DNA of 37,298 nt from a virus. Lineage: Duplodnaviria > Heunggongvirae > Uroviricota > Caudoviricetes. Every line of letters starts with the position of its first letter. Within the stretch, counting starts at the first letter, position 1. The notes beneath the pieces are model-generated. The model searched no databases, was not told the origin of the DNA, and worked only from the letters and a program-made list of their open reading frames with translations. Of the stretch, positions 14,891-37,298 are shown in pieces. The DNA lies in the IMG/VR virus record IMGVR_UViG_2872158770_000003. The stretch is one strand, 5' to 3'. The position numbers and the translations under genes were made by a program.

Positions 14891-16160
14891 AACAGCTCCT
14901 CATAGGCACTCAGTGGTCGATGTTCCACCTGACTGACCTGCTGCCAGAGCGGGGCGTGATGCTCCGGCACTGTCTGCCAGCCAGACGATGCTGAACAGAG
15001 GCGATGTGAGGCCACCAGTTTCTCATTACTGTAGATCCGCAACTCGTCATCCAGCGATATTCGTATCGATACCGGCTGACCACACAGCGCTTCGGGAACG
15101 CTGTAACGATTACCACCAACCTCGATATAGCTGTCCCAGGACACATGGCGGATATCGAAGTAACTGGTATCGAAGTCTGTATCCGGTAACGGCTGCAGAT
15201 GTTCCTGCTCCAGCGCGAAGCGCTGTTCCGGCGTTTCTTTGAACTGGCGAAGCTCCCGTTTGTCAGCCACATCGGCTATCCATTGCTCCAGTTGTTGATT
15301 GACATGAGTGAAGCTGTCGAACCTGCGGTACCGGACGAAGAAGTTCTCCTTGAGGTATTTCACCATCCGCTCAACCTTACCTTTTGTTCTGGCCCTGCGT
15401 GGACGGCATGCCCGTGGCAGGAAGTTATAGTGGTCAGCCAGCAACAGGAATCCGGAGTTGAACACGACTTTCCCGTTGTTATTCTTCAGCACCGCAGCCT
15501 TCTGGTTATCAACCAGCACCGTTTTCACACAACCACCGAAGTAGCGGAAGGCGCGAACCAGTGATTCGTAGGTATGCTCAGCATCCTGTTTTGGTGCGGC
15601 GAAGACATGGAAGCTGCGGGAGAACCCCAGCGTATTAACCGCAAAGTTAACTTTGCACCGTTGCCCGGCAACCTCCACCTCAACTTCGCCCCAGTCATGC
15701 TGGAGCTGGTATCCAGGCTGAGTTTCGAAGCGAACTGTTCTTTTTGACGGACGCATTTTACGTTTGGGCTGGATGTAGTAACGCAGCATGGAACGTCCGC
15801 CCGTATAACCCATTGCCTTAATCTCCGCGAAGATAACCTCGCTATTCCAGACATTCTCTGCCAGGCGCATGTCGATGTAATCCATAAACGGTTTCAGCTT
15901 AACCATTTTGTGGCGGGTCTTTCTGGCTGGCGGTTCAGGGTATTTGAGGTAGCGTCTGACCGTCCGTTCAGAGCAACCAATCTGAGTCGCAATATCGACG
16001 ATGTACGCGCCCTGCTGGCGCATTTGCTTTATCATGTAAAAGTCCTCTCTGCTCAGCATGTTGATGTCCTTTCTGGTGTGAGAACCTTAAGGAAACAACA
16101 TGTTGGGTGGAGCGGACAATCCAAATGGCGAATTACCGTCTTATATCACTGGCGCTGACA
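14341..16160 (-). mobile_element. IS21-family element, partial: one terminus at 16160, other end removed by IS600
   Basis: istA then istB on minus strand; high-coordinate terminus reads ...CTGACA, placed where homology to FII begins at 16161; istB cut at the IS600 boundary. Confidence 0.6.
14887..16059 (-). CDS. istA: IS21-family transposase IstA (390 aa)
   Basis: N-terminal HTH and DDE integrase-core-like region; 4-nt overlap with istB as in IS21-family operons. Confidence 0.8.
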   Translation of the reverse strand: MLSREDFYMIKQMRQQGAYIVDIATQIGCSERTVRRYLKYPEPPARKTRHKMVKLKPFMDYIDMRLAENVWNSEVIFAEIKAMGYTGGRSMLRYYIQPKRKMRPSKRTVRFETQPGYQLQHDWGEVEVEVAGQRCKVNFAVNTLGFSRSFHVFAAPKQDAEHTYESLVRAFRYFGGCVKTVLVDNQKAAVLKNNNGKVVFNSGFLLLADHYNFLPRACRPRRARTKGKVERMVKYLKENFFVRYRRFDSFTHVNQQLEQWIADVADKRELRQFKETPEQRFALEQEHLQPLPDTDFDTSYFDIRHVSWDSYIEVGGNRYSVPEALCGQPVSIRISLDDELRIYSNEKLVASHRLCSASSGWQTVPEHHAPLWQQVSQVEHRPLSAYEELL

Positions 16161-16235
16161 TCTCCGGATGACGGGGGCAGCTGTTATCTCTGGCTCAACC
16201 GTGGGCAACCACCCGCAGTTAACCGGCGACGATAA
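16161..16235 (+). pseudogene. FII: 3' remnant of head-tail joining gene FII
   Basis: Frame translates ...SPDDGGSCYLWLNRGQPPAVNRRR*, matching the lambda gpFII C-terminus (recalled); upstream part replaced by the IS21-family element. Confidence 0.55.
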
Positions 16236-16249
16236 ACGCAGGGTGAATT

Positions 16250-16825
16250 ATGGCGATAAAAGGGCTTGATCAGGCGATTGACAATCTGAACCGGGTTCGT
16301 AAAAACGCCATTCCGGCTGCTTCTGCAATGACCATTAACCGCGTGGCCACAACGGCGATTAATCAGTCTTCGTCACAGGTTGCCCGGGAAACCAGGGTGA
16401 GACGGAAACTGGTAAAGGAACGGTCCAGACTGAAACGGGCGACGGTCAGAAATCCGAATGCCAGAATTATCGTTAACCGCGGTGATCTCCCTGTGATTAA
16501 GCTGGGGATCAGAATGCTGGGGCGTCGTCCGAACAGCATACTCAAAGCCGGTCAGCATCGTTATCAGCGGGCATTTATCCAGCGATTAAATAATGGGCGC
16601 TGGCATGTTATGCAACGTCTTCCCCAGGCCAGATATGAGGAGGGCAATGACGACAAGGGAAGGAAAAAGCGTAATCGCCTTCCCATTCAGGTGGTGAAAA
16701 TCCCGATGGCGGCCCCACTGAAACAGGCATTTGATGAGAATGTTGACCGTATCCGGCGTGAACGCCTGCCTAAAGAACTGGCATACGCGCTGAAACAACA
16801 ACTGAGGATTGCGATAAAACGATGA
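16250..16825 (+). CDS. Z: tail completion protein Z (191 aa)
   Basis: Lambda gpZ-like sequence and length; stop overlaps U start. Confidence 0.85.
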   Translation: MAIKGLDQAIDNLNRVRKNAIPAASAMTINRVATTAINQSSSQVARETRVRRKLVKERSRLKRATVRNPNARIIVNRGDLPVIKLGIRMLGRRPNSILKAGQHRYQRAFIQRLNNGRWHVMQRLPQARYEEGNDDKGRKKRNRLPIQVVKIPMAAPLKQAFDENVDRIRRERLPKELAYALKQQLRIAIKR

Positions 16826-17217
16826 AACACACTGACATTCGTGCCGCAGTGCTGGATGCACTCGAGCAGCATGAACACGGGGCGACGCTGTTTGATGGTC
16901 GCCCCGTTGTTTTTGACGAAGAGGATTTTCCTGCGATCGCGGTTTATCTGACGGATGCAGAGTATACCGGTGAAGAGCTGGATGCAGATACCTGGCGGGC
17001 CACACTGCATATTGAGGTGTTTTTACCGGCACAGGTACCTGATTCGGAGCTCGATCAGTGGATGGAAAGCCGGATTTATCCGGCGATGACTGCGATCCCT
17101 GCACTGGCAGGACTGATTACCACGATGGTTACGCAGGGCTATGAGTATCGTCGTGATGACGATATGGCGTTATGGAGCTCTGCGGATCTGACTTATTCCA
17201 TTACATACGAGATGTGA
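16822..17217 (+). CDS. U: tail terminator protein U (131 aa)
   Basis: [54 protein letters not shown]... matches lambda gpU. Confidence 0.9.
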
Positions 17218-17224
17218 GGACGAT

Positions 17225-17977
17225 ATGGCAACACCAAATCCCCTGGAGCCGGTAAAAGGTGCCGGTACCACTCTGTGGGTTTACAACGGCAAGGCTGATG
17301 CTTATGCAAACCCGTTGTCAGACGATGACTGGCAGCGACTGGCTAAGGTGAAGGATCTGACGCCGGGCGAGATGACGGCTGAATCCTATGATGATAACTA
17401 CCTGGATGATGAAGACGCGGACTGGAGCGCGACCGGGCAGGGGCAGAAATCTGCAGGTGATACCAGTTTTACGCTGGCCTGGAAACCGGGAGAGGAAGGC
17501 CAGAAAGGGCTTATAGGCTGGTTTGAAAGCGGCGATGTCCGGGCCTATAAAATCCGTTTTCCGAATGGCACGGTGGATGTGTTTCGTGGCTGGGTCAGCA
17601 GTATCGGTAAGGCCGTGACGGCGAAAGAAGTGATCACCCGCACGGTGAAAGTCACTAACGTGGGTAAACCTTCTGTAGCGGAAGAACGCAGCAAAATTAC
17701 GCCGGTCAGTGCGATTAAGGTGACGCCGACATCCGGTACGGTGGCAAAAGGGAAAACAACCACCCTGACGGTTTCTTTTGAGCCGGAAAGTGCAACCGAC
17801 AAGACGTTCAGAGCGGTTTCCGCCGATCCGTCGAAAGCCACCATTAGTGTGAAAGATATGACAATTACGGTAAACGGCGTGGCGACAGGTAAGGTGCAGA
17901 TCCCTGTGGTGAGCGGAAATGGTCAGTTCGCCGCAGTGGCTGAAGTCACCGTTACTGAAGCGGGCGCTGCAGGGTAA
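17225..17977 (+). CDS. V: major tail tube protein V (250 aa)
   Basis: [14 protein letters not shown]...[41 protein letters not shown] matches lambda gpV, including C-terminal Ig-like domain. Confidence 0.9.
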
Positions 17978-17990
17978 ACGGAGGTAATAC

Positions 17991-18422
17991 ATGTTTCTGA
18001 AAACAGAACAATTTGAATATAACGGTGTGTCTGTCACGCTTTCCGAATTGTCTGCGCTGCAGCGTATCGAGCATCTTGCCCTCCTGAAACGGCGTGCAGA
18101 ACAGGCAGAATCCAGCGGCAACCTGCAGGTAAGCGTGGAAGATCTCGTCAGAACCGGCGCGTTTCTGGTGGCGATGTCCCTGTGGCATAACCATCCACAG
18201 AAAACGCAGTCACCGTCAATGAATGAGGCCGTGATGAAGATAGAGCAGGAAGTGCTCACCACCTGGCCTGCCGATGCCATTGCCCGGGCGGAAGACGTGG
18301 TGTTGTGCCTGTCCGGGATGATCGAAGCTGTTCGTCCGGATACTGATATTACTGAAGTGGCGAAAAATAACACGCTGACTGATGATGATTTTTCTGCGGG
18401 AAAGTCTTCGACGGCGAGCTGA
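17991..18422 (+). CDS. G: tail assembly chaperone G (143 aa)
   Basis: MFLKTEQFEYNGVSVTLSELSALQRIEHLALLKRRAEQAES... matches lambda gpG. Confidence 0.9.
   Translation: MFLKTEQFEYNGVSVTLSELSALQRIEHLALLKRRAEQAESSGNLQVSVEDLVRTGAFLVAMSLWHNHPQKTQSPSMNEAVMKIEQEVLTTWPADAIARAEDVVLCLSGMIEAVRPDTDITEVAKNNTLTDDDFSAGKSSTAS
18398..18404 (+). other. programmed -1 ribosomal frameshift heptamer GGGAAAG (makes G-T fusion)
   Basis: Slippery sequence near the 3' end of G; the T frame is -1 relative to G. Confidence 0.8.
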
Positions 18423-18448
18423 ACTTTGCCCTCAGACTGGCGCGTGAG

Positions 18449-18862
18449 ATGGGGAGACCCGACTGGCGCGCCATGCTTGCCGGGATGACATCCACCGAAT
18501 ATGCCGACTGGCGCCGTTTTTACCGCACGCATTATTTTCAGGATACCCAGCTGGATATGCATTTTTCCGGGCTGACGTACGCTGTACTCAGCCTGTTTTT
18601 TTGCGATCCGGATATGCATCCCTCTGATTTCAGTCTGCTTGTCCCCCGGCATGAGGAAGAGCAGGTGGAGAGGCCGGATGAGGACAAAATGCTGATGCAG
18701 AAAGCGGCAGGACTTGCCGGAGGCGTCCGGTTCGGTGGGGACGGAGGGCGCGATATTTTATCGTCTGCGGATGTGGCGGATGTCATGGTGGATGATGCCG
18801 CATTAATGATGGCTTCAGCGGGGATTCCGGGAGGTGTGAGATATGTCCCAGCCGGTTGGTGA
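18449..18862 (+). CDS. T: tail assembly protein T (translated as G-T fusion via -1 frameshift)
   Basis: ORF in -1 frame relative to G, between G and the tape-measure gene. Confidence 0.8.
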   Translation: MGRPDWRAMLAGMTSTEYADWRRFYRTHYFQDTQLDMHFSGLTYAVLSLFFCDPDMHPSDFSLLVPRHEEEQVERPDEDKMLMQKAAGLAGGVRFGGDGGRDILSSADVADVMVDDAALMMASAGIPGGVRYVPAGW

Positions 18863-21416
18863 TCTTGTTATTGACCTGAGTCTGGATGCTGTCCGTTTCG
18901 ATGAGCAGATGAGCCGGGTAAGGCGTCATTTTTCAGGTCTGGATACCGACGCCAGAAAAACCGCCAGTGCTGTTGAACAGGGCCTGAGCCGCCAGGCGCT
19001 GGCTGCACAAAAAGCCGGGATTTCCGTCGGGCAGTATAAAGCGGCCATGCGAACCCTGCCCGCACAGTTTACGGATATCGCCACGCAGCTTGCCGGTGGT
19101 CAGAATCCCTGGCTGATCCTGCTGCAACAGGGCGGTCAGGTGAAGGACTCCTTCGGCGGGATGATCCCCATGTTCAGGGGGCTTGCCGATGCGATCACCC
19201 TGCCGATGGTCGGGGTCACCTCGCTGGCGGTGGCGACAGGTGCACTGGTGTACGCCTGGTACCAGGGAGATTCCACGCTTTCAGCGTTTAATAAAACCCT
19301 GGTTCTTTCCGGTAATCAGTCCGGACTGACTGCCGATCGTATGCTGACTCTCTCAAGAGCCGGGCAGGCAGCAGGGCTGACGTTTAACCAGGCGAGAGAG
19401 TCACTGGCAGCCCTGGTGAATGCCGGTGTGCGTGGTGGTGAACAGTTTGATGCCATCAACCAGAGTGTCGCGCGTTTTGCGTCTGCATCCGGTGTGGAGG
19501 TGGATAAAGTCGCTGAAGCCTTCGGGAAGCTGACCACTGACCCGACGTCGGGACTGATGGCGATGGCGCGCCAGTTCCGTAACGTGACGGCAGAGCAGAT
19601 TGCGTATGTTGCACAGCTGCAGCGTTCCGGAGACGAGGCCGGGGCATTGCAGGCGGCGAACGATATCGCCACGAAAGGCTTTGATGAGCAGACCCGTCGC
19701 CTGAAAGAAAACATGGGAACACTGGAGACCTGGGCGGATAAAACAGGGAAGGCATTCAAATCGATGTGGGATGCCATTCTGGATATCGGTCGTCCGGAAT
19801 CCTCAGCGGATATGCTCGCCAGTGCGCAGAAGGCATTTGATGAGGCGGATAAAAAATGGCAGTGGTACCAGAGTCGGAGCCAGCGCCGCGGTAAAACCTC
19901 CTCTTTCCGGGCCAACCTTCAGGGCGCATGGGATGACCGGGAAAATGCCCGTCTGGGTCTGGCAGCGGCAACGCTGCAGTCGGATATGGAAAAAGCCGGT
20001 GAACTGGCGGCAAGGGACAGGGCTGAGCGTGAGTCGTCACAGCTGAAGTATACCGGAGAGGCGCAGAAGGCGTATGAGCGCCTGCTGACGCCACTGGAGA
20101 AATATACCGCCCGGCAGGAAGAGCTGAATAAGGCCCTGAAAGACGGGAAAATCCTGCAGGCGGATTACAACACGCTGATGGCGTCGGCAAAAAAGGATTA
20201 TGAGTCGACGCAGAAAAAGCCGTCCGGTGTGAAGGTGTCTGCCGGTGAGCGCCAGGAAGACCAGGCGCATGCAGCCCTGCTGGCGCTTGAAACTGAGCTC
20301 AGGACGCTGGAGAAGCACAGCGGTGCGAATGAAAAAATCAGCCAGCAGCGCCGTGATTTATGGAAAGCGGAAAATCAGTATGTGGTCCTGAAAGAGGCCG
20401 CCACGAAACGGCAGTTATCTGAGCAGGAAAAATCCCTGCTGGCCCATGAGAAAGAAACGCTGGAGTACAAACGCCAGCTGGCTGAGCTGGGCGACAAGAT
20501 TGAACACCAGAAACGGCTGAATGAGCTGGCACAGCAGGCGGCGCGGTTTGAACAGCAGCAGAGCGCGAAGCAGGCGGCAATCAGCGCAAAAGCCCGCGGA
20601 CTCACCGACCGTCAGGCGCAGCGGGAGTCGGAAGAGCAGCGCCTTCGTGAGGTGTACGGTGATAATCCGGCTGCGCTGGCGAAGGCCACATCTGCACTGA
20701 AGAACACCTGGTCTGCGGAGGAGCAGCTTCGTGGAAGCTGGATGGCCGGGATGAAGTCCGGCTGGGGCGAGTGGGCGGAAAGTGCGACGGACAGTTTTTC
20801 GCAGGTTAAAAACGCGGCCACGCAGACCTTTGACGGTATTGCACAGAATATGGCAGCGATGCTGATCGGCAGCGAACAGAACTGGCGTGGTTTCACCCGT
20901 TCTGTGCTGTCCATGCTGACAGAGATTTTTCTGAAGCAGGCGATGGTGGGGATAGTCGGGAGTATCGGCAGCGCCATTGGCGGTGCTTTCGGTGGTGGTG
21001 CGTCTGCCTCCACGGGGACGGCCATTCAGGCTGCGGCGGCGAACTTCCATTTCGCGACCGGGGGATTTACGGGGACGGGGGGTAAATATGAACCTGCGGG
21101 GATTGTTCATCGCGGGGAGTTTGTCTTCACGAAGGAGGCGACCAGCCGGATTGGTGTCGGCAATCTGTACCGCCTGATGCGGGGCTATGCGGAAGGTGGT
21201 TATGTCGGCGGTGCCGGAAGTCCGGCGCAGATGCGGCGGGCGGAAGGCATTAATTTTAATCAGAACAATCACGTGGTGATTCAGAACGACGGCCCCAACG
21301 GGCGGGCAGGGCCGCAGCTGATGAAAGCGGTGTATGAGATGGCCCGCAAGGGGGCACAGGATGAACTCCGGCTGCAGTTGCGTGATGGCGGTATGTTATC
21401 AGGGAGCGGTGGATGA
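18843..21416 (+). CDS. H: tail tape measure protein H (857 aa)
   Basis: Lambda gpH-like length, coiled-coil-rich centre and Gly-rich C-terminus; gene order G/T-H-M. Confidence 0.9.
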   Translation: MSQPVGDLVIDLSLDAVRFDEQMSRVRRHFSGLDTDARKTASAVEQGLSRQALAAQKAGISVGQYKAAMRTLPAQFTDIATQLAGGQNPWLILLQQGGQVKDSFGGMIPMFRGLADAITLPMVGVTSLAVATGALVYAWYQGDSTLSAFNKTLVLSGNQSGLTADRMLTLSRAGQAAGLTFNQARESLAALVNAGVRGGEQFDAINQSVARFASASGVEVDKVAEAFGKLTTDPTSGLMAMARQFRNVTAEQIAYVAQLQRSGDEAGALQAANDIATKGFDEQTRRLKENMGTLETWADKTGKAFKSMWDAILDIGRPESSADMLASAQKAFDEADKKWQWYQSRSQRRGKTSSFRANLQGAWDDRENARLGLAAATLQSDMEKAGELAARDRAERESSQLKYTGEAQKAYERLLTPLEKYTARQEELNKALKDGKILQADYNTLMASAKKDYESTQKKPSGVKVSAGERQEDQAHAALLALETELRTLEKHSGANEKISQQRRDLWKAENQYVVLKEAATKRQLSEQEKSLLAHEKETLEYKRQLAELGDKIEHQKRLNELAQQAARFEQQQSAKQAAISAKARGLTDRQAQRESEEQRLREVYGDNPAALAKATSALKNTWSAEEQLRGSWMAGMKSGWGEWAESATDSFSQVKNAATQTFDGIAQNMAAMLIGSEQNWRGFTRSVLSMLTEIFLKQAMVGIVGSIGSAIGGAFGGGASASTGTAIQAAAANFHFATGGFTGTGGKYEPAGIVHRGEFVFTKEATSRIGVGNLYRLMRGYAEGGYVGGAGSPAQMRRAEGINFNQNNHVVIQNDGPNGRAGPQLMKAVYEMARKGAQDELRLQLRDGGMLSGSGG

Positions 21417-24115: not shown

Positions 24116-27100
24116 ATGGGAAAAGGTGGCGGTAAGGCACACACGCCTCGTGAGGCGAAGGATAATCTCAAATCCACGCAGATGATGAGCGTGATTGATG
24201 CGATTGGTGAGGGACTGATAGAAGGTCCGGTGAAGGGACTGCAGAGTATCCTGGTGAACAAAACCCCGCTGACGGACACGGACGGTAATCCCGTGATACA
24301 CGGTGTGACGGCGGTCTGACGCGCCGGGGAGCAGGAGCAGACACCACCGGAAGGCTTTGAGTCCTCCGGTGCTGAAACCGGACTGGGCGTGGAAGTGACG
24401 AAGGCAAAACCGGTGACGCGCACCATTACGTCCGCGAACATTGACCGCCTGCGGGTTACCTTCGGGGTGCAGTCACTGGTGCAGACCACGTCAAAGGGTG
24501 ACCGAAACCCGACATCCGTCCGCCTGCTGATTCAGTTACAGCGTAACGGTAACTGGGTGACAGAAAAGGATGTCACCATTAACGGCAAGACCACCTCGCA
24601 GTTTCTGGCGTCGGTGATTCTGGATAATCTGCCTCCCCGTCCTTTTAACATCCGGATGGTCCGGGAGACAGCGGACAGCACCACGGACCAGCTGCAGAAT
24701 AAGACGCTGTGGTCGTCATACACCGAAATCATCGATGTGAAACAGTGCTACCCGAACACGGCCATTGTGGGGCTGCAGGTGGATGCGGAGCAGTTCGGCG
24801 GCCAGCAGATGACGGTGAACTACCATATCCGCGGTCGCATCATCCAGGTGCCGTCAAACTATGACCCGGAAAAACGCACGTACAGTGGTATCTGGGACGG
24901 TAGCCTGAAACCGGCATACAGCAACAATCCGGCCTGGTGTCTGTGGGACATGCTGACTCACCCGCGCTACGGCATGGGAAAACGTCTGGGGGCGGCGGAT
25001 GTGGACAAGTGGGCGCTGTATGCCATCGGGCAGTACTGCGACCAGACGGTCCCGGATAGTTTCGGGGAGACCGAGCCGCGGATGACCTTCAATGCGTACC
25101 TGGCACAACAGCGTAAGGCATGGGACGTGCTCAGTGATTTCTGCTCGGCGATGCGCTGTATGCCGGTATGGAACGGCCAGACGCTGACGTTTGTTCAGGA
25201 CCGCCCGTCGGATGTGGTGTGGCCGTACACCAACAGCGATGTGGTGGTGGATGATAACGGCGTGGGTTTCCGCTACAGCTTCAGTGCCCTGAAGGACCGG
25301 CACACGGCGGTGGAGGTGAATTATACCGACCCGCAGAACGGCTGGCAGACCTCCACGGAACTGGTGGAAGACCCGGAAGCCATACTGCGCTACGGACGCA
25401 ACCTGCTGAAGATGGACGCGTTCGGCTGTACCAGCCGCGGTCAGGCCCACCGTGCCGGACTGTGGGTGATAAAGACCGAACTGCTGGAAACGCAGACGGT
25501 GGATTTCACGCTCGGGTCTCAGGGGCTGCGGCACACACCCGGTGACATCATTGAAATCTGTGATAACGACTATGCCGGGACCCTGACCGGCGGACGTGTC
25601 CTGTCCATTGATGCTGCCACCCGCACTCTGACGCTGGACCGTGAAGTGACACTTCCGGAGACCGGTGCCGCCACGGTGAACCTGATTAACGGCAGCGGTA
25701 AGCCGGTGAGTGTGGACATCACCGAACACCCCGCGCCGGACCGGATACAGGTCAGTACCCTGCCTGATGGTGTGGGGACTCTCCCTGCCGTCACTGCGCC
25801 GTCTCCTGTTCCGCTGTGTCTCCGTCCGGGAAAACACGGACGGCACCTTTGCCATCACGGCGGTGCAGCACGTACTGGAAAAAGAAGCCATCGTGGATAA
25901 CGGTGCCCGCTTTGAGCCGCAGTCAGGTTCCCTGAACAGCGTCATCCCACCGGCAGTGCAGCACCTGACGGCCAGTATCTGGCGCAGGCGAAATGGGACA
26001 CGCCGCGGGTGGTGAAGGGTGTGCGCTTCAGTCTGCGCCTGACCAGTGGTAAGGGAACGGATGCCAGACTGGTGACCACCGCCATCACCGCAGACACGGA
26101 GCACCGTTTCAGCGGCCTGCCGCTCGGGGAATACACCCTGACGGTGCGGGCGATAAACAGCTATGGCCAGCAGGGTGAACCTGCCACCACCACCTTCCGG
26201 ATTGCCGCACCGGCAGCACCGTCGCGGATTGAGCTGACGCCGGGCTATTTTCAGATAACCGCAACGCCGCATCTTGCCGTTTATGACCCGACGGTACAGT
26301 TTGAGTTCTGGTTCTCGGAAAAGCGGATTGCGGATATCAGGCAGGTTGAAACCAGCGCCCGCTATCTTGGCACGGCGCTGTACTGGATAGCCGCCAGTAT
26401 CAATATCAAACCGGGCCATGATTATTATTTTTACGTTCGCAGTGTGAACACCGTTGGCAAATCGGCATTCGTGGAGGCTGTCGGTCGGGCGAGCGATGAT
26501 GCGGAAGGTTACTTGGATTTTTTCAAAGGAGAGATAGGGAAAACACATCTGGCTCAGGAGCTGTGGACGCAGATTGATAACGGTCAGCTTGCGCCTGACC
26601 TGGCTGAAATCAGGACGTCCATTACGGATGTCAGCAATGAAATCACGCAGACTGTCAATAAGAAACTGAAAGACCAGAGTGCGGCAATCCAGCAGATACA
26701 GAAGGTTCAGGTTGATACAAATAATAATCTGAACAGCATGTGGGCTGTGAAGCTGCAACAGATGAAGGACGGACGCCTTTATATTGCGGGTATCGGTGCC
26801 GGTATTGAGAATACGCCAGCAGGAATGCAGAGTCAGGTGCTGCTGGCGGCAGACAGGATTGCGATGATTAATCCTGCGAATGGCAACACAAAGCCGATGT
26901 TTGTTGGTCAGGGCGATCAGATATTCATGAACGACGTGTTCCTGAAACGCCTGACGGCTCCCACCATTACCAGCGGCGGTAATCCTCCGGCATTTTCCCT
27001 GACACCGGACGGAAAACTGACCGCTAAAAATGCAGATATCAGTGGCAGTGTGAATGCGAACGCCGGGACGCTCAACAATGTCACAATTAATGAGAACTGT

Positions 27101-27550
27101 CAGATTAAGGGGAAACTGTCAGCCAACCAGATTGAAGGCGATATAGTCAAAACAGTGGGTAAGGCTTTTCCGCGGGACTCCCGGGCACCGGAGCGGTGGC
27201 CATCAGGGACCATTACCGTCAGGATTTATGACGATCAGCCTTTTGACAGGCAAATTGTTATTCCGGCGGTGGCATTCAGCGGCGCTAAACATGAGCGGGA
27301 GAATAACGATATTTATTCGTCATGCCGCCTGATAGTACGGAAAAACGGTGCTGAAATTTATAACCGTACCGCGCTGGATAATACGCTGATTTACAGTGGT
27401 GTTATTGATATGCCAGCTGGTCGCGGCCACATGACGCTGGAGTTTTCGGTGTCAGCATGGCTGGTGAATAACTGGTATCCCACAGCAAGTATCAGCGATT
27501 TGCTGGTTGTGGTGATGAAGAAAGCCACCGCAGGCATCAGTATCAGCTGA
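24116..27550 (+). pseudogene. J: central tail fiber / host specificity protein J, inactivated by one in-frame stop and two frameshifts
   Basis: Lambda J-like sequence over the full length, but in-frame TGA at 24317-24319 and frame changes near 25775 and 25975 break it into three ORFs (67, 503 and 513 aa). Confidence 0.85.
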
Positions 27551-28368: not shown

Positions 28369-30996
28369 ATGACAGTAAAAATTTCTGGCGTGCTTAAAGA
28401 TGGCACAGGAAAACCAGTACAGAACTGCACCATTGTGCTGAAGGCCAGACGAACCAGCAGCACGATGGTGGTGAACACGGTGGCCTCTGAAAATCCGGAT
28501 GAAGCCGGACGTTACAGCATGGATGTTGAGCATGGTCAGTACAGCGTCACCCTGCTGGTTGAAGGTTTTCCGCCTTCACATGCCGGGACCATTACCGTCT
28601 ATGAAGGTTCCAGACCAGGTACGCTGAATGATTTTCTCGGTGCCATGACGGAGGATGATGTCCGACCGGAGGCACTGCGCCGCTTTGAGCAGATGGTGGA
28701 AGAGGTGTCACGTAACGCCTCCGCGGTTGCACAGAATACGGCAGCCGCGAAAAAATCAGCCAGCGAGGCGGCAACTCATGCAACCGATGCTGCAGCCTCA
28801 GCACGTGCCGCCAGCACGTCAGCCGGACAGGCCGCGTCGTCGGCTCAGTCAGCGTCTTCCAGCGCAGGAACGGCATCGACAAAGGCCCGTGAAGCAGCAA
28901 AAAGTGCTGCTGCAGAGTCATCAAAAAGCGCGGCAGCTACCAGCGCCAGTGCCGCGAAAACGTCAGAAACGAATGCCGCAGCATCACAAAAATCGGCAGC
29001 CACTTCTGCATCCACAGCGACCACGAAGGCGTCAGAAGCTGCCACCTCGGCACGGGGTGCGGCGGCCTCAAAAGAGGCAGCGAAATCTTCAGAAACGAAT
29101 GCATCATCAAGTGCCAGTAGTGCAGCTTCCTCGGCAACGGCGGCAGGAAATTCCGCGAAGGCGGCAAAAACGTCCGAGACGAACGCTAAGTCTTCTGAAA
29201 CAGCAGCGGGACAGAGCGCCTCAGCTGCGGCAGGTTCAAAAACAGCGGCTGCATTATCTGCCAGTGCCGCGTCAACAAGTGCCGGGCAGGCCTCAGCCAG
29301 TGCCACCGCCGCCGGAAAATCGGCAGAAAGCGCCGCATCATCCGCTTCAACAGCCACAACGAAGGCTGGCAAAGCCACTGAGCAAGCCACTGCAGCAGCG
29401 AGGTCTGCTTCTGCAGCAAAAACCTCTGAAACAAATGCAAAGACTTCAGCAGACAATGCTGCTTCCTCTAAGGCAGCAGCCGCATCGTCAGCCAGTTCAG
29501 CGGCGTCATCGGCATCATCTGCGTCTGCTTCAAAAGATGAGGCGACCAGACAAGCGTCAGCAGCGAAAGGTAGTGCCACGACAGCAACAACGAAAGCATC
29601 AGAGGCGGCAGGCAGTGCGACGGCTGCATCTCAGAGCAAAGTTGCTGCTGAATCCGCGGCAACGCGCGCCGAGACAGCAGCAAAACGGGCAGAGGATATT
29701 GCATCCGCCGTGGCGCTGGAGGATGCGAGCACGACGAAAAAGGGGATAGTACAGCTCAGCAGTGCGACCAACAGCACTTCCGAGTCACTGGCGGCAACGC
29801 CAAAAGCGGTTAAGGCGGTAATGGGTGAAACGAACAAGAAAGCGCCCTTAAATAGTCCTGCACTGACCGGAACGCCAACAACACCAACTGCGCGACAGGG
29901 AACGAATAATACCCAAATCGCAAGCACGGCTTTCGTTATGGCTGCGATTGCCGCCCTTGTAGATTCGTCACCTGATGCACTGAACACGCTGAACGAGCTG
30001 GCTGCGGCGCTGGGCAACGACCCGAATTTTGCGACCACCATGACTAACGCGCTTGCGGGTAAGCAACCGAAAGATGCCACCCTGACGGCGCTGGCCGGAC
30101 TTACTACTGCGGCAGGCAAGTTTCCGTATTTTACGGGGAATGATGTCGCCAGCCTGGCAACCCTGACAAAAGTCGGGCGGGATATTCTTGCGAAATCGAC
30201 CGTTGCTGCCGTTATCGAATACCTCGGTTTACGAGAACTCGGCACAAGCGGGGAGAAAATACCGTTACTCAGTACAGCGAATACCTGGACTAATCGACAA
30301 ACATTCAGCGGTGGCCTTTCTGGTGAACTATCCGGCAATGCTTCTACAGCTGCAAAATTAAAAACTGCCAGGAAAATAAGCAATGTGGCTTTTGATGGTT
30401 CCTCCGATATCACATTAAAAGCAAGTCATGTTGGTGCGTTTGCCTTAGGGAAAACAGGAAGCACCGTTGCGAATGATAAAGCAGTTGGATGGAACTGGAG
30501 TAGCGGAGCCTATAACGCAACTATTAGTGGTGCATCAACGTTAATTATTCATTTTTATATGGGAGAAGGAAGTTGTCCTGCAGCTCAGTTTCGGATTAAT
30601 TATAAAAATGGCGGTATTTTTTATCGTTCAGCCCGTGATGGTTATGGTTTTGAAGCCGACTGGTCCGAATTTTACACCACCAGAAAACCTTCAGCAGGAG
30701 ATGTTGGTGCACTGCCGTTATCTGGTGGTCAACTGAATGGTGCACTGGGTATCGGAACATCCAGTGCTCTTGGCGGTAATTCGATTGTATTGGGTGATAA
30801 TGACACGGGCTTTAAACAAAAAGGCGATGGTAATCTGGATGTTTATGCTAATAACGTCCATGTTATGCGCTTTGTCTCCGGAAGCATTCAAAGTAATAAA
30901 ACCATAAATATTACGGGACGTGTTAATCCCTCGGATTACGGTAACTTTGATTCCCGCTATGTGAGAGATGTCAGACTTGGCACACGAGTTGTTTAG
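28369..30996 (+). CDS. stf: side tail fiber protein Stf (875 aa to an in-frame amber; frame continues to 31146)
   Basis: Lambda Stf-like N-terminus MTVKISGVLKDGTGKPVQNCTIVLKARRTSSTMVVNTVASE; long Ala/Ser/Thr-rich repeat region; crosses invertase crossover site at 30212-30237. Confidence 0.8.
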   Translation: MTVKISGVLKDGTGKPVQNCTIVLKARRTSSTMVVNTVASENPDEAGRYSMDVEHGQYSVTLLVEGFPPSHAGTITVYEGSRPGTLNDFLGAMTEDDVRPEALRRFEQMVEEVSRNASAVAQNTAAAKKSASEAATHATDAAASARAASTSAGQAASSAQSASSSAGTASTKAREAAKSAAAESSKSAAATSASAAKTSETNAAASQKSAATSASTATTKASEAATSARGAAASKEAAKSSETNASSSASSAASSATAAGNSAKAAKTSETNAKSSETAAGQSASAAAGSKTAAALSASAASTSAGQASASATAAGKSAESAASSASTATTKAGKATEQATAAARSASAAKTSETNAKTSADNAASSKAAAASSASSAASSASSASASKDEATRQASAAKGSATTATTKASEAAGSATAASQSKVAAESAATRAETAAKRAEDIASAVALEDASTTKKGIVQLSSATNSTSESLAATPKAVKAVMGETNKKAPLNSPALTGTPTTPTARQGTNNTQIASTAFVMAAIAALVDSSPDALNTLNELAAALGNDPNFATTMTNALAGKQPKDATLTALAGLTTAAGKFPYFTGNDVASLATLTKVGRDILAKSTVAAVIEYLGLRELGTSGEKIPLLSTANTWTNRQTFSGGLSGELSGNASTAAKLKTARKISNVAFDGSSDITLKASHVGAFALGKTGSTVANDKAVGWNWSSGAYNATISGASTLIIHFYMGEGSCPAAQFRINYKNGGIFYRSARDGYGFEADWSEFYTTRKPSAGDVGALPLSGGQLNGALGIGTSSALGGNSIVLGDNDTGFKQKGDGNLDVYANNVHVMRFVSGSIQSNKTINITGRVNPSDYGNFDSRYVRDVRLGTRVV
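30212..30237. other. Pin/Gin/Hin-type invertase crossover site (left), inside stf
   Basis: TTATCGAATACCTCGGTTTACGAGAA is an inverted match (22/26) to the site at 33127-33153. Confidence 0.65.
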
Positions 30997-31148
30997 ACCA
31001 TGAAGAAAGGCGTGATGTATGAAAAATCAGGCCATGTAATCACGGGGCTTGGTATTATCGGTGAAGTCGATGGTGATGATCCGGCAGTATTCAGACCAAT
31101 ACAAAAGTTAATTAACGGAACATGGTATAACGTATCGCAGGTATAATC

Positions 31149-31682
31149 ATGCAGCATTTAAAAAACATTGTCGCAGGTAATCCAAAAACCGTTGAACAAT
31201 ACCAGCTAACAAAGAATTTTGATGTTATCTGGTTATGGTCCGAAGATGGAAAAAATTGGCATGAGGAATTAAAAAACTTTCAGGAGGATACAATAAAACT
31301 GGCTTACACAGTTGAGGGAATAATTATTGCTATAGACAAGGATGTATCAGCAATTAATCCAGAAGGTTTAAGTGTCGTTGAGTTGCCTGATATTACAGCA
31401 AATCGCCGGGCTGATATTTCGGGCAACTGGATGTTCAAAGATGGTGCGGTGATAAAGCGAACTTATACCGAGGAAGAGCAAAGGCAACAAGCGGAAAATG
31501 AAAAGCAGAGCCTGCTGCAGCTCGTCAGGGATAAAACCCAGCTGTGGGACTCTCAGCTACAGCTGGGCATCATTTCCGATGAGAATAAACAAAAATTAAC
31601 CGAGTGGATGCTCTATGCGCAGAAGGTTGAATCCACAGACACCTCCAGCCTGCCAGTAACGTTTCCCGAACAACCAGAATGA
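31149..31682 (+). CDS. tfa: tail fiber assembly protein Tfa (177 aa)
   Basis: N-terminus [22 protein letters not shown]... typical of Tfa chaperones; paralogous to the minus-strand copy at 31711-32238. Confidence 0.75.
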
Positions 31683-31685
31683 GAG

Positions 31686-31714
31686 AAGGCCCGCTATCGG
31701 GCCTTAATTTTTAT
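31686..31714 (+). terminator. terminator hairpin between the convergent tfa genes
   Basis: 8-bp stem AAGGCCCG/CGGGCCTT, loop CTAT, then AATTTTTATT. Confidence 0.6.
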
Positions 31715-32238
31715 TCAGGCTTTTGTGGCCATTCAGGATTTGCCGTATCCACACGGCTGACCAGAACACTGTAGCGTTCCCATGCTTCCAGTCGTGTGCG
31801 TTCCTCGTCTGTTGCCATATTCAGCCTGACAGCGCGTTCCAGCGGCTGGATGACTGATTCAGCTTCGGAAAGCAATGCGGCCTTTTGTGATTCGGCCTGT
31901 TGTTGCAGTTCCTGTTCTGTATATTCCCTCTTTACTACTTTACCATCCAGAAACATCCATTTTCCGTTATTGTCTGCGTGACGATTTGCCGTAATATCAG
32001 GAACTTCAACTATGCTTAGCCCTTCAGGATTAATAGTTGAAACGTCTTTACTGACAGCAACGATGATGTTGTTCTCATCGTAAGCAATTTTTATGGTGTC
32101 TGGCTGAAAATTCTTTTGTTCCTCATACCAGTTTTTGCCATCTTCGCAAAAGAGCCATACCACGCCCGCTTTTTTAGTTAGCTGGTATTGTTCCGGTGTT
32201 TTCGGATTCCCGGCCTTAATATTTTTCAGGTGCATCAT
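31711..32238 (-). CDS. tfa: alternative tail fiber assembly protein Tfa' (about 175 aa from MHLKN)
   Basis: [21 protein letters not shown]...[25 protein letters not shown]; ORF track's longer 31711-32274 form overlaps the stf' end. Confidence 0.7.
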
Positions 32239-32239
32239 C

Positions 32240-33126
32240 TTAAACACTCCCCACGTTGTACCATATTCCCCCAATCAATTTCTGAATTGGCCTTCTGGCA
32301 ACAGTGTCGACAATATCATCCGCATTGCTGTTAATTGCGGCTGTTAAAACATAACCTGACGCATCGCCAAAGCCGTAGTCGCGCCATACGTTTTTATATT
32401 CAATGCTGCCAAGACGAATATCCCGAACGACATGATTATGCAGCCATGTGCTTAACCAGTTGTTTTCCCACACTGAACCATAAATATCGCCACTAGACGC
32501 AACTTGCGCACCACTTCCCAGCGCAAATCCCCCATCTGTTTTAAAAATGAAATCACCACCACCATCTGAACCGTTATTAATATGAACACCATCACCACCG
32601 TTATCTTTCCACAAAAACATACGAATTCTTCCGTCTTCGTTGGCGAATGTAATGTGGTGGCGGTAATTACTTTTTAATCTAAAATTGCTGCCATTAGATT
32701 CAATATCTTTATAAAGATGTAATCCTAACTCATCAATATGTCCGATGCGCGAACCATTTGAATAGAAGCTAATAATACCATCTCCATCTTGCCTAAATCC
32801 GGTGTCGTTATCTCCCAGAACAATGGAGTTTTCACCCAGTGCGTTATCAGTAGCTCCAATAGCTAGACCTCCTTTAATTTTGGCCCCGTGGCTGACAGAT
32901 ATAGCACCTGTTCTCAGATTTATAGCGAATGGCCTTAATGGGCCGATATTACCGTTTTCGCCTTGTCCTTCAGCCGTCGGAATGAAATGAAGAAAATCTT
33001 CTGAACGACGGAAAATTAGACCGAAGGTATCATTGAAAATTCGCAGCGCATTCACCGTGCCAATTTTCAGTTCTCCGGTCATTTTATCGCCGGAACGCTG
33101 AACGGCGTTACCAGCCTTGTTTACCG
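32240..33126 (-). CDS. alternative side-tail-fiber C-terminal cassette (Stf'), no own start; would fuse to stf constant part after inversion
   Basis: Minus-strand frame open from the crossover site; ends ...[17 protein letters not shown], homologous to the plus-strand stf end; recombining the half-sites gives an in-frame junction. Confidence 0.6.
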
Positions 33127-33153
33127 TTTCCTGTAAACCGAGGTTTTAGATAA
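33127..33153. other. Pin/Gin/Hin-type invertase crossover site (right), next to the invertase gene
   Basis: TTTCCTGTAAACCGAGGTTTTAGATAA; reverse complement matches 30212-30237. Confidence 0.65.
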
Positions 33154-33207
33154 TGGCGGTTTCTGGCCTGCATGGCATGATTTGTGCTTTTGGACGGGAG
33201 ATTCAGC

Positions 33208-33450
33208 GTGCTGATTGGCTATGTAAGGGTATCAACAAATGACCAGAATACAGACCTGCAACGAAACGCTCTTGTTTGTGCAGGATATGAACAAATATTT
33301 GAAGATAAATTAAGCGGAACAAGGACAGGCCGACCTGGATTAAAACGTGCTTTAAAGCGCCTTCAAAAAGGTGACGCACTGGTTGTCTGAAAACTGGACT
33401 GACTGGGTCACTGTATGCGGCATCTTGTCGTGCTGGTGGTGGAAGCCTAG
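33208..33450 (+). pseudogene. pin: serine DNA invertase (Pin/Gin/Hin family), decayed: in-frame stops and loss of C-terminal half
   Basis: GTG start; LIGYVRVSTNDQNTDLQRNALVCAGYEQIFEDKLSGTRTGRPGLKRALKRLQKGDALVV has the catalytic Ser region; then TGA at 33388-33390 and further stops, and the rest of the gene is absent. Confidence 0.75.
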
Positions 33451-33534
33451 AAAAAGTATCGGGTGTTGCTGAACCGTGTTGATACATCAACTGCACCTGA
33501 TATTGAGTGGCCTACGAACCCTGTCAGGGAGTAA
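33451..33534 (+). pseudogene. 3' remnant of a tfa gene fused to the pin remnant
   Basis: Translates [26 protein letters not shown], the conserved Tfa C-terminal motif; near-identical DNA recurs at 34509-34583. Confidence 0.5.
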
Positions 33535-33588
33535 TCATTGGGATTATGCCGCAGCACGTCTTAAGCAAGAACGTGCTGCGGTTGGATG

Positions 33589-34257
33589 CTATTTTTTCCC
33601 TGAAGCGGAAAACATTACTACAGTACCTTGAACCCTGGTTTTAACATTCTCGAAATGCTCTGAGAGTATATGTGTTAAGCCTTCTTCGGAATCTTTTGTG
33701 TTTGAAAAGATGCCTTTCTGATTGTAAATGCGCATCAGTTTTTGACCGAAGCTATTGTGCACAACTCCATCGCCAAGAATTGTGGCTCCGTATAGAGTTC
33801 CATCGTCAGTTAAGGCCTGCGCCGCATTGCGTATTACACAGCTTTTTGTAGATATATTTCCAGGCAGGCAGTGAAGAAGGTAAAACATGGAAATGGAATC
33901 AAATTGACCATGTAACGCCGCGGGATAAGGTTCAAAAACATCATGGCTAATTTTATGTTTAATTTTTGATTCCCCAGCCCTTGTAGATGCCGCGTTCAGG
34001 CTAGCTTCGTTCAAATCCATTAAAGATATCAGACTACTCTCAGGTACGTGAGTAAGGTAAAACCCAGTTCCAACACCAATATCCAGATGGTTGTTACCTA
34101 AATGTTCCAGAAAGTGTGGAAGAAGGTGTTCCTTTGTAGGACATCCCCATGCAAGCCGATTTGATACTCCCAAAACCCACCAGTCATAAAGCTTTAGGGT
34201 AAGTGGTGTGTAAATTTTAGCCCCATCATCTGTGTTTGTTTTCATTGATTTCACCAT
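33589..34257 (-). CDS. class I SAM-dependent methyltransferase (222 aa), probably small-molecule/protein type
   Basis: Rossmann motif I HLDIGVGTGFYL and downstream acidic residue; single minus-strand gene between two direct repeats. Confidence 0.7.
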   Translation of the reverse strand: MVKSMKTNTDDGAKIYTPLTLKLYDWWVLGVSNRLAWGCPTKEHLLPHFLEHLGNNHLDIGVGTGFYLTHVPESSLISLMDLNEASLNAASTRAGESKIKHKISHDVFEPYPAALHGQFDSISMFYLLHCLPGNISTKSCVIRNAAQALTDDGTLYGATILGDGVVHNSFGQKLMRIYNQKGIFSNTKDSEEGLTHILSEHFENVKTRVQGTVVMFSASGKK

Positions 34258-34349
34258 GTTATAGTTTTATTTGTGAATTAAATCAATTATGGCGATGAAT
34301 TACAAGGGGTTAAATGCTGCCGCAGCATAGCGATATTGAAATAGCCTAG

Positions 34350-34583
34350 TATGCTTCGATACAGCAGGAGCCGAATGGCTGGAAGACCGTCACCACACAG
34401 TTCTACATCCAGGAATTTAGTGAGTATATTGCGCCACTGCAGGATGCTGTAGATCTGGAAATCGCAACGGAGGAAGAAAGATCGTTGCTGGAGGCATGGA
34501 ATAAATATCGGGTATTGTTGAATCGTGTTGATACATCAACTGCACCTGATATTGAGTGGCCTGCAAATCCTGTCAGGGAGTAA
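34350..34583 (+). pseudogene. 3' fragment of a tfa gene
   Basis: In-frame from a TAG at 34347; ends ...[37 protein letters not shown]; no start codon. Confidence 0.5.
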
Positions 34584-34657
34584 TCATTGGGATTATGCCG
34601 CAGGTGATGCTGCCAACTTACTGATTTAGTGTATGATGGTGTTTTTGAGGTGCTCCA

Positions 34658-34933
34658 GTGGCTTCTGTTTCTATCAGCTGTCCCTCCTGTTCAGCTACTG
34701 ACGGGGTGGTGCGTAACGGCAAAAGCACTGCCGGACATCAGCGCTATCTCTGCTCTCACTGCCGTAAAACATGGCAACTGCAGTTCACTTACACCGCTTC
34801 TCAACCCGGTACGCACCAGAAAATCATTGATATGGCCATGAATGGCGTTGGATGCCGGGCAACTGCACGCATTATGGGCGTTGGCCTCAACACGATTTTA
34901 CGTCACTTAAAAAACTCAGGCCGCAGTCGGTAA
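34658..34933 (+). CDS. insA: IS1 InsA
   Basis: Same protein as 945-1220 with one substitution (G/S at residue 21). Confidence 0.9.
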
Positions 34934-35355
34934 CCTCGCGCATACAGCCGGGCAGTGACGTCATCGTCTGCGCGGAAATGGACGAACAGTGGGGCTATGT
35001 CGGGGCTAAATCGCGCCAGCGCTGGCTGTTTTACGCGTATGACAGTCTCCGGAAGACGGTTGTTGCGCACGTATTCGGTGAACGCACTATGGCGACGCTG
35101 GGGCGTCTTATGAGCCTGCTGTCACCCTTTGACGTGGTGATATGGATGACGGATGGCTGGCCGCTGTATGAATCCCGCCTGAAGGGAAAGCTGCACGTAA
35201 TCAGCAAGCGATATACGCAGCGAATTGAGCGGCATAACCTGAATCTGAGGCAGCACCTGGCACGGCTGGGACGGAAGTCGCTGTCGTTCTCAAAATCGGT
35301 GGAGCTGCATGACAAAGTCATCGGGCATTATCTGAACATAAAACACTATCAATAA
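34852..35355 (+). CDS. insB: IS1 InsB reading frame
   Basis: Identical to 523-1026 product. Confidence 0.9.
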
Positions 35356-35399
35356 GTTGGAGTCATTACCTATGCCGCAGACACGTCGTATGCAGGAAC

Positions 35400-36904: not shown

Positions 36905-37298
36905 GGGTAATGACTCCAACTTATTGATAGTGTTTTATGTTCAGATAATGCCCGATGACTTTGTCATGCAGCTCCACCGATTTTGAGAACGACAGCGACT
37001 TCCGTCCCAGCCGTGCCAGGTGCTGCCTCAGATTCAGGTTATGCCGCTCAATTCGCTGCGTATATCGCTTGCTGATTACGTGCAGCTTTCCCTTCAGGCG
37101 GGATTCATACAGCGGCCAGCCATCCGTCATCCATATCACCACGTCAAAGGGTGACAGCAGGCTCATAAGACGCCCCAGCGTCGCCATAGTGCGTTCACCG
37201 AATACGTGCGCAACAACCGTCTTCCGGAGACTGTCATACGCGTAAAACAGCCAGCGCTGGCGCGATTTAGCCCCGACATAGCCCCACTGTTCGTCCAT
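36905..37298 (-). mobile_element. IS1, third copy, partial (runs off window end)
   Basis: Terminal repeat GGTAATGACTCCAACTTATTGATAGTG at 36905; sequence identical to the insB end of the other copies. Confidence 0.9.
36921..37298 (-). CDS. insB: IS1 InsB, partial at window edge
   Basis: Translation identical to the C-terminal 125 aa of InsB. Confidence 0.85.

Follow-up and report, generated by a model that had tools for sequence, protein, structure and literature searches.

Can a phage tail-fibre switch still be turned when the invertase gene next to it is dead? This question is raised by a 2.9-kb segment within a decayed, defective lambdoid prophage that adjoins trpA/ompW in Shigella sonnei and is contained in a stretch of 37,298 nucleotides, hereafter the window, to whose first letter all positions refer. 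The segment (30212-33153) is a genuine but ordinary, already described kind of phage tail-fibre DNA switch. It is very likely an orphan, non-autonomous member of the Gin/Cin/Pin/Hin (Din) family that is flipped by an invertase encoded elsewhere, non-autonomous because the adjacent invertase gene is not functional. Judged by sequence, the locus is the orthologue of prophage Phi4 of the E. coli ST131 strain EC958, with which it shares the ompW/trpA site, the truncated invertase and the crossover sites; a literature search found no paper on the S. sonnei copy. The host was identified as S. sonnei from exact protein matches, and the assembly of its strain is GCA_900457155.1. An earlier note on this DNA had assigned the segment to the Mu G, P1 C and e14 P type and considered it probably frozen. 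The assignment holds, as the sites are of the gix type and the DNA is homologous to Mu G and P1 C, whereas the frozen state does not agree with the genomes compared below.

Organization of the invertible segment

The locus contains the following features:

28369-30223, plus strand: constant N-terminal part of stf, ending at the crossover core (open reading frame 28369-30996)
30212-30237, plus strand: left 26-bp crossover site inside stf, TTATCGAATACCTCGGTTTACGAGAA, core TC at 30224-30225
30226-31146, plus strand: variable cassette A, the Stf C-terminus read in the orientation of the window, interrupted by TAG at 30994-30996
31149-31682, plus strand: tfa, tail-fibre assembly chaperone of cassette A, 177 aa (PF02413 Caudo_TAP, E 4.8e-34)
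31686-31705, no strand: GC-rich hairpin between the convergent tfa genes, an 8-bp stem with 6 GC pairs, then a T-rich tail
31711-32238, minus strand: tfa', chaperone of cassette B, 175 aa (PF02413, E 7.9e-37)
32240 to about 33139-33141, minus strand: variable cassette B, a silent Stf C-terminus with an open frame (PF20744 gp37_trimer, E 2.7e-07)
33128-33153, plus strand: right 26-bp crossover site, TTCCTGTAAACCGAGGTTTTAGATAA, core GA at 33140-33141
33208-33439, plus strand: Gin/Cin-type serine invertase remnant, 232 nt, 60 sense codons from GTG at 33208
33226-33297, plus strand: predicted recombinational (Fis) enhancer within the remnant, placed by alignment with nt 19-90 of P1 cin, the enhancer according to record AF234172
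33437-33554, plus strand: Tfa C-terminal fragment fused to the truncated invertase, from its translation and the RefSeq annotation of orthologous loci

The earlier note had bracketed the segment with inverted 26-bp crossover sites, and alignment recovers the inverted repeat, with arms of 30 nt (30208-30237 and 33128-33157) that are 83% complementary. Its left site is a real repeat at the coordinates listed above; the right one, given as 33127-33153, was one base too long. The two 26-bp sites lie in opposite orientation, are complementary at 22 of 26 positions and identical over the central 12 bp, and their 12-bp half-sites fit the gix/cix consensus around matching central dinucleotides (TC and GA). 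A scan of the 37 kb with a gix-type pattern, allowing up to 3 mismatches, returned exactly these two sites, where 100 shuffles gave an expectation of 0. The left site matches Mu gixL at 22/26 positions and has the same sequence as its left counterparts in EC958 Phi1 and in the ST131 strain 4/0, and the right site differs from Mu gixR, as read from the Mu genome, by one mismatch (25/26).

Residues 1-134 of Stf form a phage_tail_N domain (PF08400, E 3.3e-69), and the constant part of the gene is 96.8% identical to stf of EC958 Phi4. The left site lies inside this fibre reading frame, and the approximately 2.9 kb behind it hold two convergent cassettes, each with a fibre C-terminus and its own Tfa/U-type chaperone, as had been proposed: PF02413 is found twice and PF20744 in cassette B. 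The start of tfa recurs in inverted form, at 71%, in the first 159 nt of tfa', and the hairpin between the two genes looks like a terminator. In the orientation of the window Stf is without its last 49 residues, since the TAG codon, at the position of which E. coli NCTC86 has CAG, cuts off 30997-31146. This nonsense codon was overlooked in the earlier note. Inversion of 30224-33141 in silico exchanges the C-terminus in frame and leads to an uninterrupted Stf of 918 aa that ends 1 nt before tfa'. The claim that joining the half-sites yields an in-frame stf fusion is thereby borne out, all the more as the predicted protein exists in S. sonnei: WP_347176641.1 differs from it solely by R146H, outside the junction, and the fusion is also present in S. 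sonnei CP032523.1.

Decay of the adjacent invertase gene

The 60 codons of the remnant match PF00239 (E 2.9e-15). Over nt 1-191 the remnant is 96.9% identical to Mu gin, and from there it is cin-like up to 33439, where the homology stops after about codon 77 of roughly 190 (the full gene has ~580 nt). Members of the Din family carry a functional invertase with PF00239 and HTH_7 domains just outside the segment; here the C-terminal two thirds are gone, and the HTH with them, and the frame is closed by TGA at 33388-33390, a second TGA at 33400-33402 and TAG at 33448-33450. The earlier description of a decayed invertase gene with internal stops was therefore correct for this 232-nt remnant. The same stops and the same truncation are found in the remnants of S. 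sonnei, EC958, 4/0 and NCTC86, and therefore the decay of the invertase is older than the flips described below.

The 5' end of the remnant has kept a further element. A Fis enhancer, which the earlier note had suggested looking for in 33208-33330, is predicted at 33226-33297, where two 15-mers fitting the Fis consensus (33230-33244 and 33278-33292) have their centres 48 bp apart, the spacing of Din-family enhancers at the invertase 5' end; this assignment is made at the sequence level only. A single nucleotide (33287 G>A) separates the stretch from Mu gin, and it falls where the Fis consensus is unconstrained. Downstream, the Tfa fragment at 33437-33554 marks a deletion/recombination junction. 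A methyltransferase gene lies between two copies of a direct repeat, of which this fragment is the left one (90% identity to 34486-34603).

Orientation of the segment in related genomes

In S. sonnei CP032523.1 the flanks are 99.95-100% identical to the window and 30208-33157 is inverted. Its crossover sites are the hybrids TTATCGAATACCTCGGTTTACAGGAA and TTCTCGTAAACCGAGGTTTTAGATAA, in which the half-sites have been exchanged exactly at the core. The same half-site exchange distinguishes the ST131 isolates 4/0 and 4/1-1, which have 100% identical flanks and opposite orientations. Among complete E. coli genomes with the remnant and methyltransferase locus, one state was counted 144 times and the other 239 times, using queries of 926 nt that reach into the methyltransferase gene; a first census with 626-nt junction queries gave 152 versus 302, counts to which loci with an intact invertase could have added. 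Queries with the whole segment, in one orientation or the other, always stayed below 80% coverage in E. coli, owing to the mosaic nature of the cassette alleles.

These differences between genomes mean that flips have happened, and they are evidence neither of frequent flips nor of flips going on in the strain of the window. Near-identical genomes of S. sonnei and of ST131 that carry the same dead invertase are found in opposite orientations with an exchange that is exact at the core, and EC958 Phi4 exists in both orientations (PMC4134206), which speaks against a frozen switch. The reservation added in the earlier note, that a related invertase might act in trans, turned out to be the better reading. 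Both orientations with exchange at the core are thus documented between genomes, and within one culture only for the orthologue (PMC4134206). Truly locked are those S. sonnei genomes, many in number, in which the left site has been lost via an IS-associated deletion.

A proposed source of invertase in trans

All parts needed in cis are intact, namely two inverted 26-bp sites with matching 2-bp cores and, within the initial 90 nt of what was once the invertase gene, a predicted enhancer for Fis. We infer that a small serine invertase from elsewhere binds both sites, for which P2-like Phi1-type, Mu-like, P1-like and e14-type prophages are candidate sources. Together with Fis at the enhancer it would form an invertasome, cut at the central dinucleotides, and religate the DNA after a rotation of 180 degrees. 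The inversion would then swap cassette A, crippled by its nonsense codon and contributing the last 258 sense codons of Stf, together with its Tfa chaperone, for cassette B and Tfa', leading to the intact 918-aa Stf.

Intact enzymes of this type are found in several related genomes. In EC958, the Phi1 prophage has an intact Gin-like invertase adjoining crossover sites that are identical or near-identical to those described here, and strain 4/0 has two intact invertase genes elsewhere in its genome, in a 50-kb stretch in which a motif scan found no crossover-like site. One intact Gin-like invertase is present in a draft assembly of inferred S. sonnei that carries the same locus. A 190-aa recombinase labelled S. 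sonnei was rejected as the enzyme of the window's strain; it is a Gin-like gene of a Mu-like prophage on contigs of ~50-168 kb from other samples.

It is quite possible, albeit not what we expect, that the switch is locked in the strain of the window, with intact cis elements and no compatible invertase at present, and that S. sonnei flips it only while an invertase-carrying phage (P2-, Mu- or P1-like) is resident. The 37-kb window holds no intact invertase, and when complete S. sonnei chromosomes were queried for the cassette proteins, cassette A and tfa came up at the trp locus only and not at a Phi1-like locus. A P2-like locus with an intact invertase in the draft L006 lies on a chimeric contig and is, as these queries gave the trp locus alone, not universal in S. 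sonnei. Moreover, the orientation looks stable within S. sonnei groups (L005/L007/L009/L020/L033/L034 versus L012/L032 and the deletion lineage). However, the window and CP032523.1 share a derived IS1 insertion at 34604 and yet differ by the inversion, so that the flip must be recent, and assemblies inferred or source-labelled to be S. sonnei do carry intact Gin-like invertases. An enzyme acting in trans may still be available to the strain.

Site-specific inversion is also preferred over a homologous, RecA-dependent exchange at the short inverted repeats or at the inverted 5' ends of tfa and tfa', which is highly improbable. Such a route might have used the 30-nt imperfect inverted repeat in which the sites sit or the 159-nt, 71% repeat inside the segment, but the breakpoints lie in the 12-bp identical centre of the 26-bp sites and not in tfa, and an identity of 12 bp is far below the requirement of RecA. 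In addition, the same exchange arose independently in S. sonnei and ST131, the sites fit the gix/cix consensus, and the enhancer is conserved. That the orientation differences are assembly artefacts of a segment fixed in nature is scarcely credible, for although three draft S. sonnei contigs (L006, L008 and L010) have a palindromic or chimeric structure around the region, the repeats have only 26-30 bp, the interior and its flanks are both unique, reciprocal hybrid sites are cleanly seen in closed chromosomes of independent projects, hundreds of genomes are in each state, and hairpin and adapter artefacts were excluded for EC958 by Forde et al. (PMC4134206).

Comparison with known switches

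An orphan switch served in trans has a close precedent in EC958 Phi4, a 3106-bp segment with a truncated invertase, for which both orientations were found in PacBio reads of one culture and the Phi1 invertase was proposed to act in trans (Forde et al. 2014, PMC4134206). Both loci lie in the same lambdoid prophage next to ompW/trpA and share their crossover half-sites, and the right flank has the same order of invertase remnant, Tfa fragment, SAM methyltransferase, Rha/ash, ompW' and trpA, with 99.5-99.7% identity across the Tfa-fragment/methyltransferase/Rha-ash part. The remnants are truncated alike, with the same two premature TGA stops, and differ at 3 of 300 nt. Cassette A is 98% identical in EC958, where it is placed inverted and adjoins the invertase remnant, the reference being recorded in the orientation opposite to the window. 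In contrast, cassette B is another allele, of which only the first ~340 nt match (at 93%), and the S. sonnei copy has the nonsense codon in cassette A and IS1 insertions in the right flank, in a prophage that is further decayed (J split, IS elements).

With the G segment and Gin of Mu the locus shares the layout S-constant, Sv-U, U'-Sv', site and invertase. Mu, however, is a viable myovirus with an intact gin, whereas the S. sonnei locus belongs to a lambdoid side tail fibre (PF08400 N-terminus) and has a dead invertase. Across 45-52% of the query, DNA identity to the Mu G and P1 C segments amounts to about 78-82%. Homologous cassettes and Tfa genes are found in the C segment of P1, which has Cin, and in the B segment of S. 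boydii, which has pinB (~78% DNA identity, 52% of the query), and the P1 record AF234172 notes that its own segment is 93% identical to S. boydii SHFPINB. P1 further resembles the locus in that the 5' end of cin contains an annotated enhancer and that the distal part of the remnant is cin-like; it differs in that cin is on the other side relative to S, the C segment has 4.2 kb and the invertase is intact. The P segment of e14 is likewise a tail-fibre switch of a cryptic prophage that is flipped by the invertase of another prophage, with both orientations common in sequenced genomes (PMC12529663), PinQ of Qin being the enzyme that inverts it in trans (Kirigo et al. 2025, PMC12529663). Unlike the S. 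sonnei locus, e14 has its own intact pinE and a segment of 1.8 kb with other repeats as reported (PMC12529663), and it has been shown to play a host-level anti-phage role (PMC12529663).

Implications for the prophage and its host

StfE2 of e14 has been reported as a receptor-masking anti-phage factor (PMC12529663). By analogy, the orphan switch could be maintained by the host and not merely be decaying, in that a flip by a foreign invertase, e.g. upon P2-, Mu- or P1-like infection, would turn on the 918-aa Stf as a receptor-masking anti-phage factor at the cell surface. We regard this as improbable; the idea rests on the fact that both sites and the 5' stub with its enhancer are conserved in S. 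sonnei and in thousands of E. coli genomes, within a prophage that is otherwise eroding.

The finding is of little consequence beyond correct annotation: the two Stf "fragments" and the "partial recombinase" belong to a single functional unit. Differences in orientation between assemblies may be legitimate at this locus, and drafts may break or duplicate there. The locus also illustrates clearly that such a switch is not frozen by the loss of its invertase gene, provided that the 26-bp sites and the enhancer are preserved and the enzyme comes from another prophage, a point that was already made in 2014 for the orthologous locus of EC958 (PMC4134206).

Anatomy of the Invertible Segment

The tail-fiber segment is bounded by inverted arms at 30208-30237 and 33128-33157, which were returned by a repeat finder as 30 nt with 83% complementarity and a spacing of 2890 nt. 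The cores of the left (L) and right (R) crossover sites are complementary at 22 of 26 positions, and their central dinucleotides, TC in L and GA in R, are one dinucleotide on opposite strands. Allowing three mismatches at most, a gix-type pattern matches twice in the 37-kb window, exactly at L and R, and has no match in 100 shuffles. The left coordinates of the earlier note stand; its right site (33127-33153) was one base too long.

Features of the invertible segment
30212-30237, L site core, 26 bp, TTATCGAATACCTCGGTTTACGAGAA
within the segment, + strand, C-terminal part of stf (cassette A); Stf has a PF08400 prophage tail-fiber N-terminus
31149-31682, + strand, tfa, PF02413
31686-31705, GC-rich hairpin between the convergent tfa genes
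31711-32238, - strand, tfa', PF02413
32240-33141, - strand, silent cassette B, open frame reaching into the R site, PF20744
33128-33153, R site core, 26 bp, TTCCTGTAAACCGAGGTTTTAGATAA

Pfam matches and the ORF map agree with the proposed two Stf C-terminal cassettes in opposite orientation, each with its own Tfa. Joining the half-sites gives the expected in-frame fusion, as in-silico inversion of 30224-33141 leads to an unbroken 918-aa Stf that ends 1 base ahead of tfa'. In the window's orientation stf terminates at TAG 30994-30996, giving a product of 875 aa. The frame runs on for 49 further codons to 31146, immediately ahead of tfa, and these codons now stand as a separate 48-aa ORF (31000-31146). 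Since the equivalent codon is CAG in E. coli NCTC86 and the frame continues past the TAG, the expressed stf allele bears a nonsense mutation. This codon was overlooked in the earlier note. The silent cassette would yield an intact 918-aa Stf, compared to 875 aa from the expressed allele.

The adjacent invertase gene had been described as decayed, with the 5' region kept, in-frame stops and the C-terminal half absent, and the remnant (33208-33439) reads exactly so. Sixty sense codons from GTG 33208 (PF00239, E 2.9e-15) are followed by TGA, another TGA and then TAG. By alignment the remnant is a mosaic, gin-like in nt 1-191 (96.9% identity to Mu gin) and cin-like in the remainder, with nt 192-232 aligning only with P1 cin (about 70% overall identity over nt 2-232). 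This weaker cin-like homology ends at 33439, where a Tfa C-terminal fragment starts. As only about 232 of roughly 580 nt are left, the remaining catalytic domain and the HTH are absent. Stops and truncation are identical in S. sonnei, EC958, 4/0 and NCTC86, so the loss of the invertase is older than the divergence of these lineages, and the flips followed it. Two Tfa C-terminal fragments form direct repeats (33437-33554 and 34486-34603, 90% identical) and enclose a minus-strand gene (33589-34257) for a class I SAM-dependent methyltransferase. This module (33437-34603) sits where the 3' part of the invertase was lost, and about 4520 of the 5426 complete E. coli genomes gave a full or partial match to junction queries across it.

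A Fis enhancer, suggested for 33208-33330, was found at 33226-33297 by alignment to Mu gin and P1 cin, the P1 record having the enhancer of Cin-mediated inversion annotated at nt 19-90 of cin. The stretch is one base off Mu gin (33287 G>A, at an unconstrained position of the Fis consensus). The consensus GNNYRNNWNNYRNNC fits two 15-mers at gene offsets 23-37 and 71-85, with centers 48 bp apart, in the window, Mu and P1, and we infer Fis binding at the remnant's enhancer. Since the enhancer is kept alongside both sites, all cis-acting elements are present.

Orientation of the Segment

The S. sonnei chromosome CP032523.1 has flanks 99.95-100% identical to the window, including the derived IS1 at 34604, which is missing from the deletion-bearing S. 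sonnei lineage described below. Its segment 30208-33157 lies in the opposite orientation between the reciprocal hybrid sites TTATCGAATACCTCGGTTTACAGGAA and TTCTCGTAAACCGAGGTTTTAGATAA, with a Stf of 918 aa and the same 60-aa remnant. The in-silico fusion is also matched by WP_347176641.1, a 918-aa protein of S. sonnei, with R146H as the one difference. Among the S. sonnei genome records, L005, L007, L009, L020, L033 and L034 are oriented as the window, and the chromosome L032 is flipped, with an IS inside stf. L011, L013-L017 and L019 show a flipped right junction and an IS-associated deletion of stf, the left site and tail genes, with an IS3-family element abutting cassette B at ~32528 (window coordinate), and thus their segment is permanently locked. 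In E. coli ST131, the flanks are 100% identical between isolates 4/0 and 4/1-1, and the 3.1-kb segment is inverted in one relative to the other, with half-sites exchanged as in S. sonnei. A census with 926-nt junction queries, which start in the cassette, cover the remnant and end in the methyltransferase, found one cassette beside the remnant in 144 complete E. coli genomes and the other in 239.

Judged from these genome comparisons, the age of the invertase decay and the published reads of the orthologue in EC958, the switch is not frozen at the level of species or locus type, against the earlier view that it probably was. In the window's own strain the segment may be locked at present, for want of an enzyme. 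Inversion by RecA-mediated recombination is unlikely, as the exchange lies within the 12-bp identical center of consensus gix-type sites and recurs independently. An assembly artifact is also unlikely, given clean reciprocal hybrid sites in closed chromosomes of independent projects and the artifact controls of Forde et al. (2014; PMC4134206).

The S. sonnei draft contigs L006, L008 and L010 are palindromic or chimeric around the segment and contain flipped-type junctions plus a second remnant and methyltransferase copy (98-99% identity), which could reflect mixed orientations in culture or collapsed inter-prophage repeats.

Candidate Sources of the Invertase

Forde et al. (2014) suggested that Phi4 of EC958 is inverted in trans by the invertase of Phi1 (PMC4134206), and inversion of the e14 P segment by PinQ of Qin is an experimental precedent for such action between prophages (PMC12529663). 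The P2-like prophage Phi1 of EC958 contains an invertible tail-fiber segment of its own, an intact 199-aa invertase and a left site identical to the L site. Near aroA, strain 4/0 carries two intact invertase genes, and 1107 of 5426 E. coli genomes contain, at ≥80% coverage, the invertase 3' half that is missing from the remnant. The draft assembly GCA_900160265.1, inferred to be S. sonnei because it has the window's locus, encodes an intact invertase of 195 aa, which lies in a Phi1-like context and adjoins a site identical to the R site. This contig is chimeric, and in complete S. sonnei chromosomes the cassette proteins were found at no place but the trp locus, so the strain of the window may itself have no such enzyme. 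L006 has a second, Phi1-like (P2-type) invertible locus (15741-19838) with an intact 195-aa invertase, whose cassette A and tfa are identical to the window's, nonsense codon included, and whose cassette B and tfa' are different; this suggests cassette exchange between prophages or assembly collapse.

Prophage Setting and Relation to Known Systems

The window is 100% identical to S. sonnei record UGZF01000005.1 (GCA_900457155.1), and the 875-aa Stf was found solely in records named S. sonnei. The locus lies in a lambdoid prophage beside trpA and a disrupted ompW; a J in two ORFs, together with IS1 and IS3-family insertions, marks this prophage as defective. The tail-tip gene J (24389-27550) is broken into ORFs of 503 and 513 aa, the first piece being 547 aa in other S. 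sonnei genomes; this split is further evidence for a prophage that would be unable to make functional tails. Two inverted IS1 copies (34604-35370 and 36906-37298) flank Rha/ash genes and are 100% complementary over 393 nt, as far as the window extends.

The supposed kinship with the Mu G and P1 C segments is borne out by DNA homology (~78-82% identity over 45-52% of the query). Read from the Mu genome, gixR differs from the R site by 1 base and gixL from the L site by 4. The closest system is EC958 Phi4, in which a 3106-bp invertible segment with the same sites, accompanied by a severely truncated invertase, occurred in both orientations in PacBio reads of one culture (PMC4134206). We confirmed EC958 1481500-1493500 as the orthologous locus, and its publication already covers the anatomy, the truncated invertase, inversion in culture and the idea of an enzyme acting in trans. 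Literature searches found no article about this locus in S. sonnei, where the only species-specific details are a different cassette B allele, the cassette A nonsense codon, the IS1 insertions and an orientation polymorphism within the species. Altogether, the finding is real, its first interpretation was mostly good, and the locus is ordinary. It has every defining feature of Din-family invertible tail-fiber segments except a functional adjacent invertase, and is therefore a non-autonomous member of this family.
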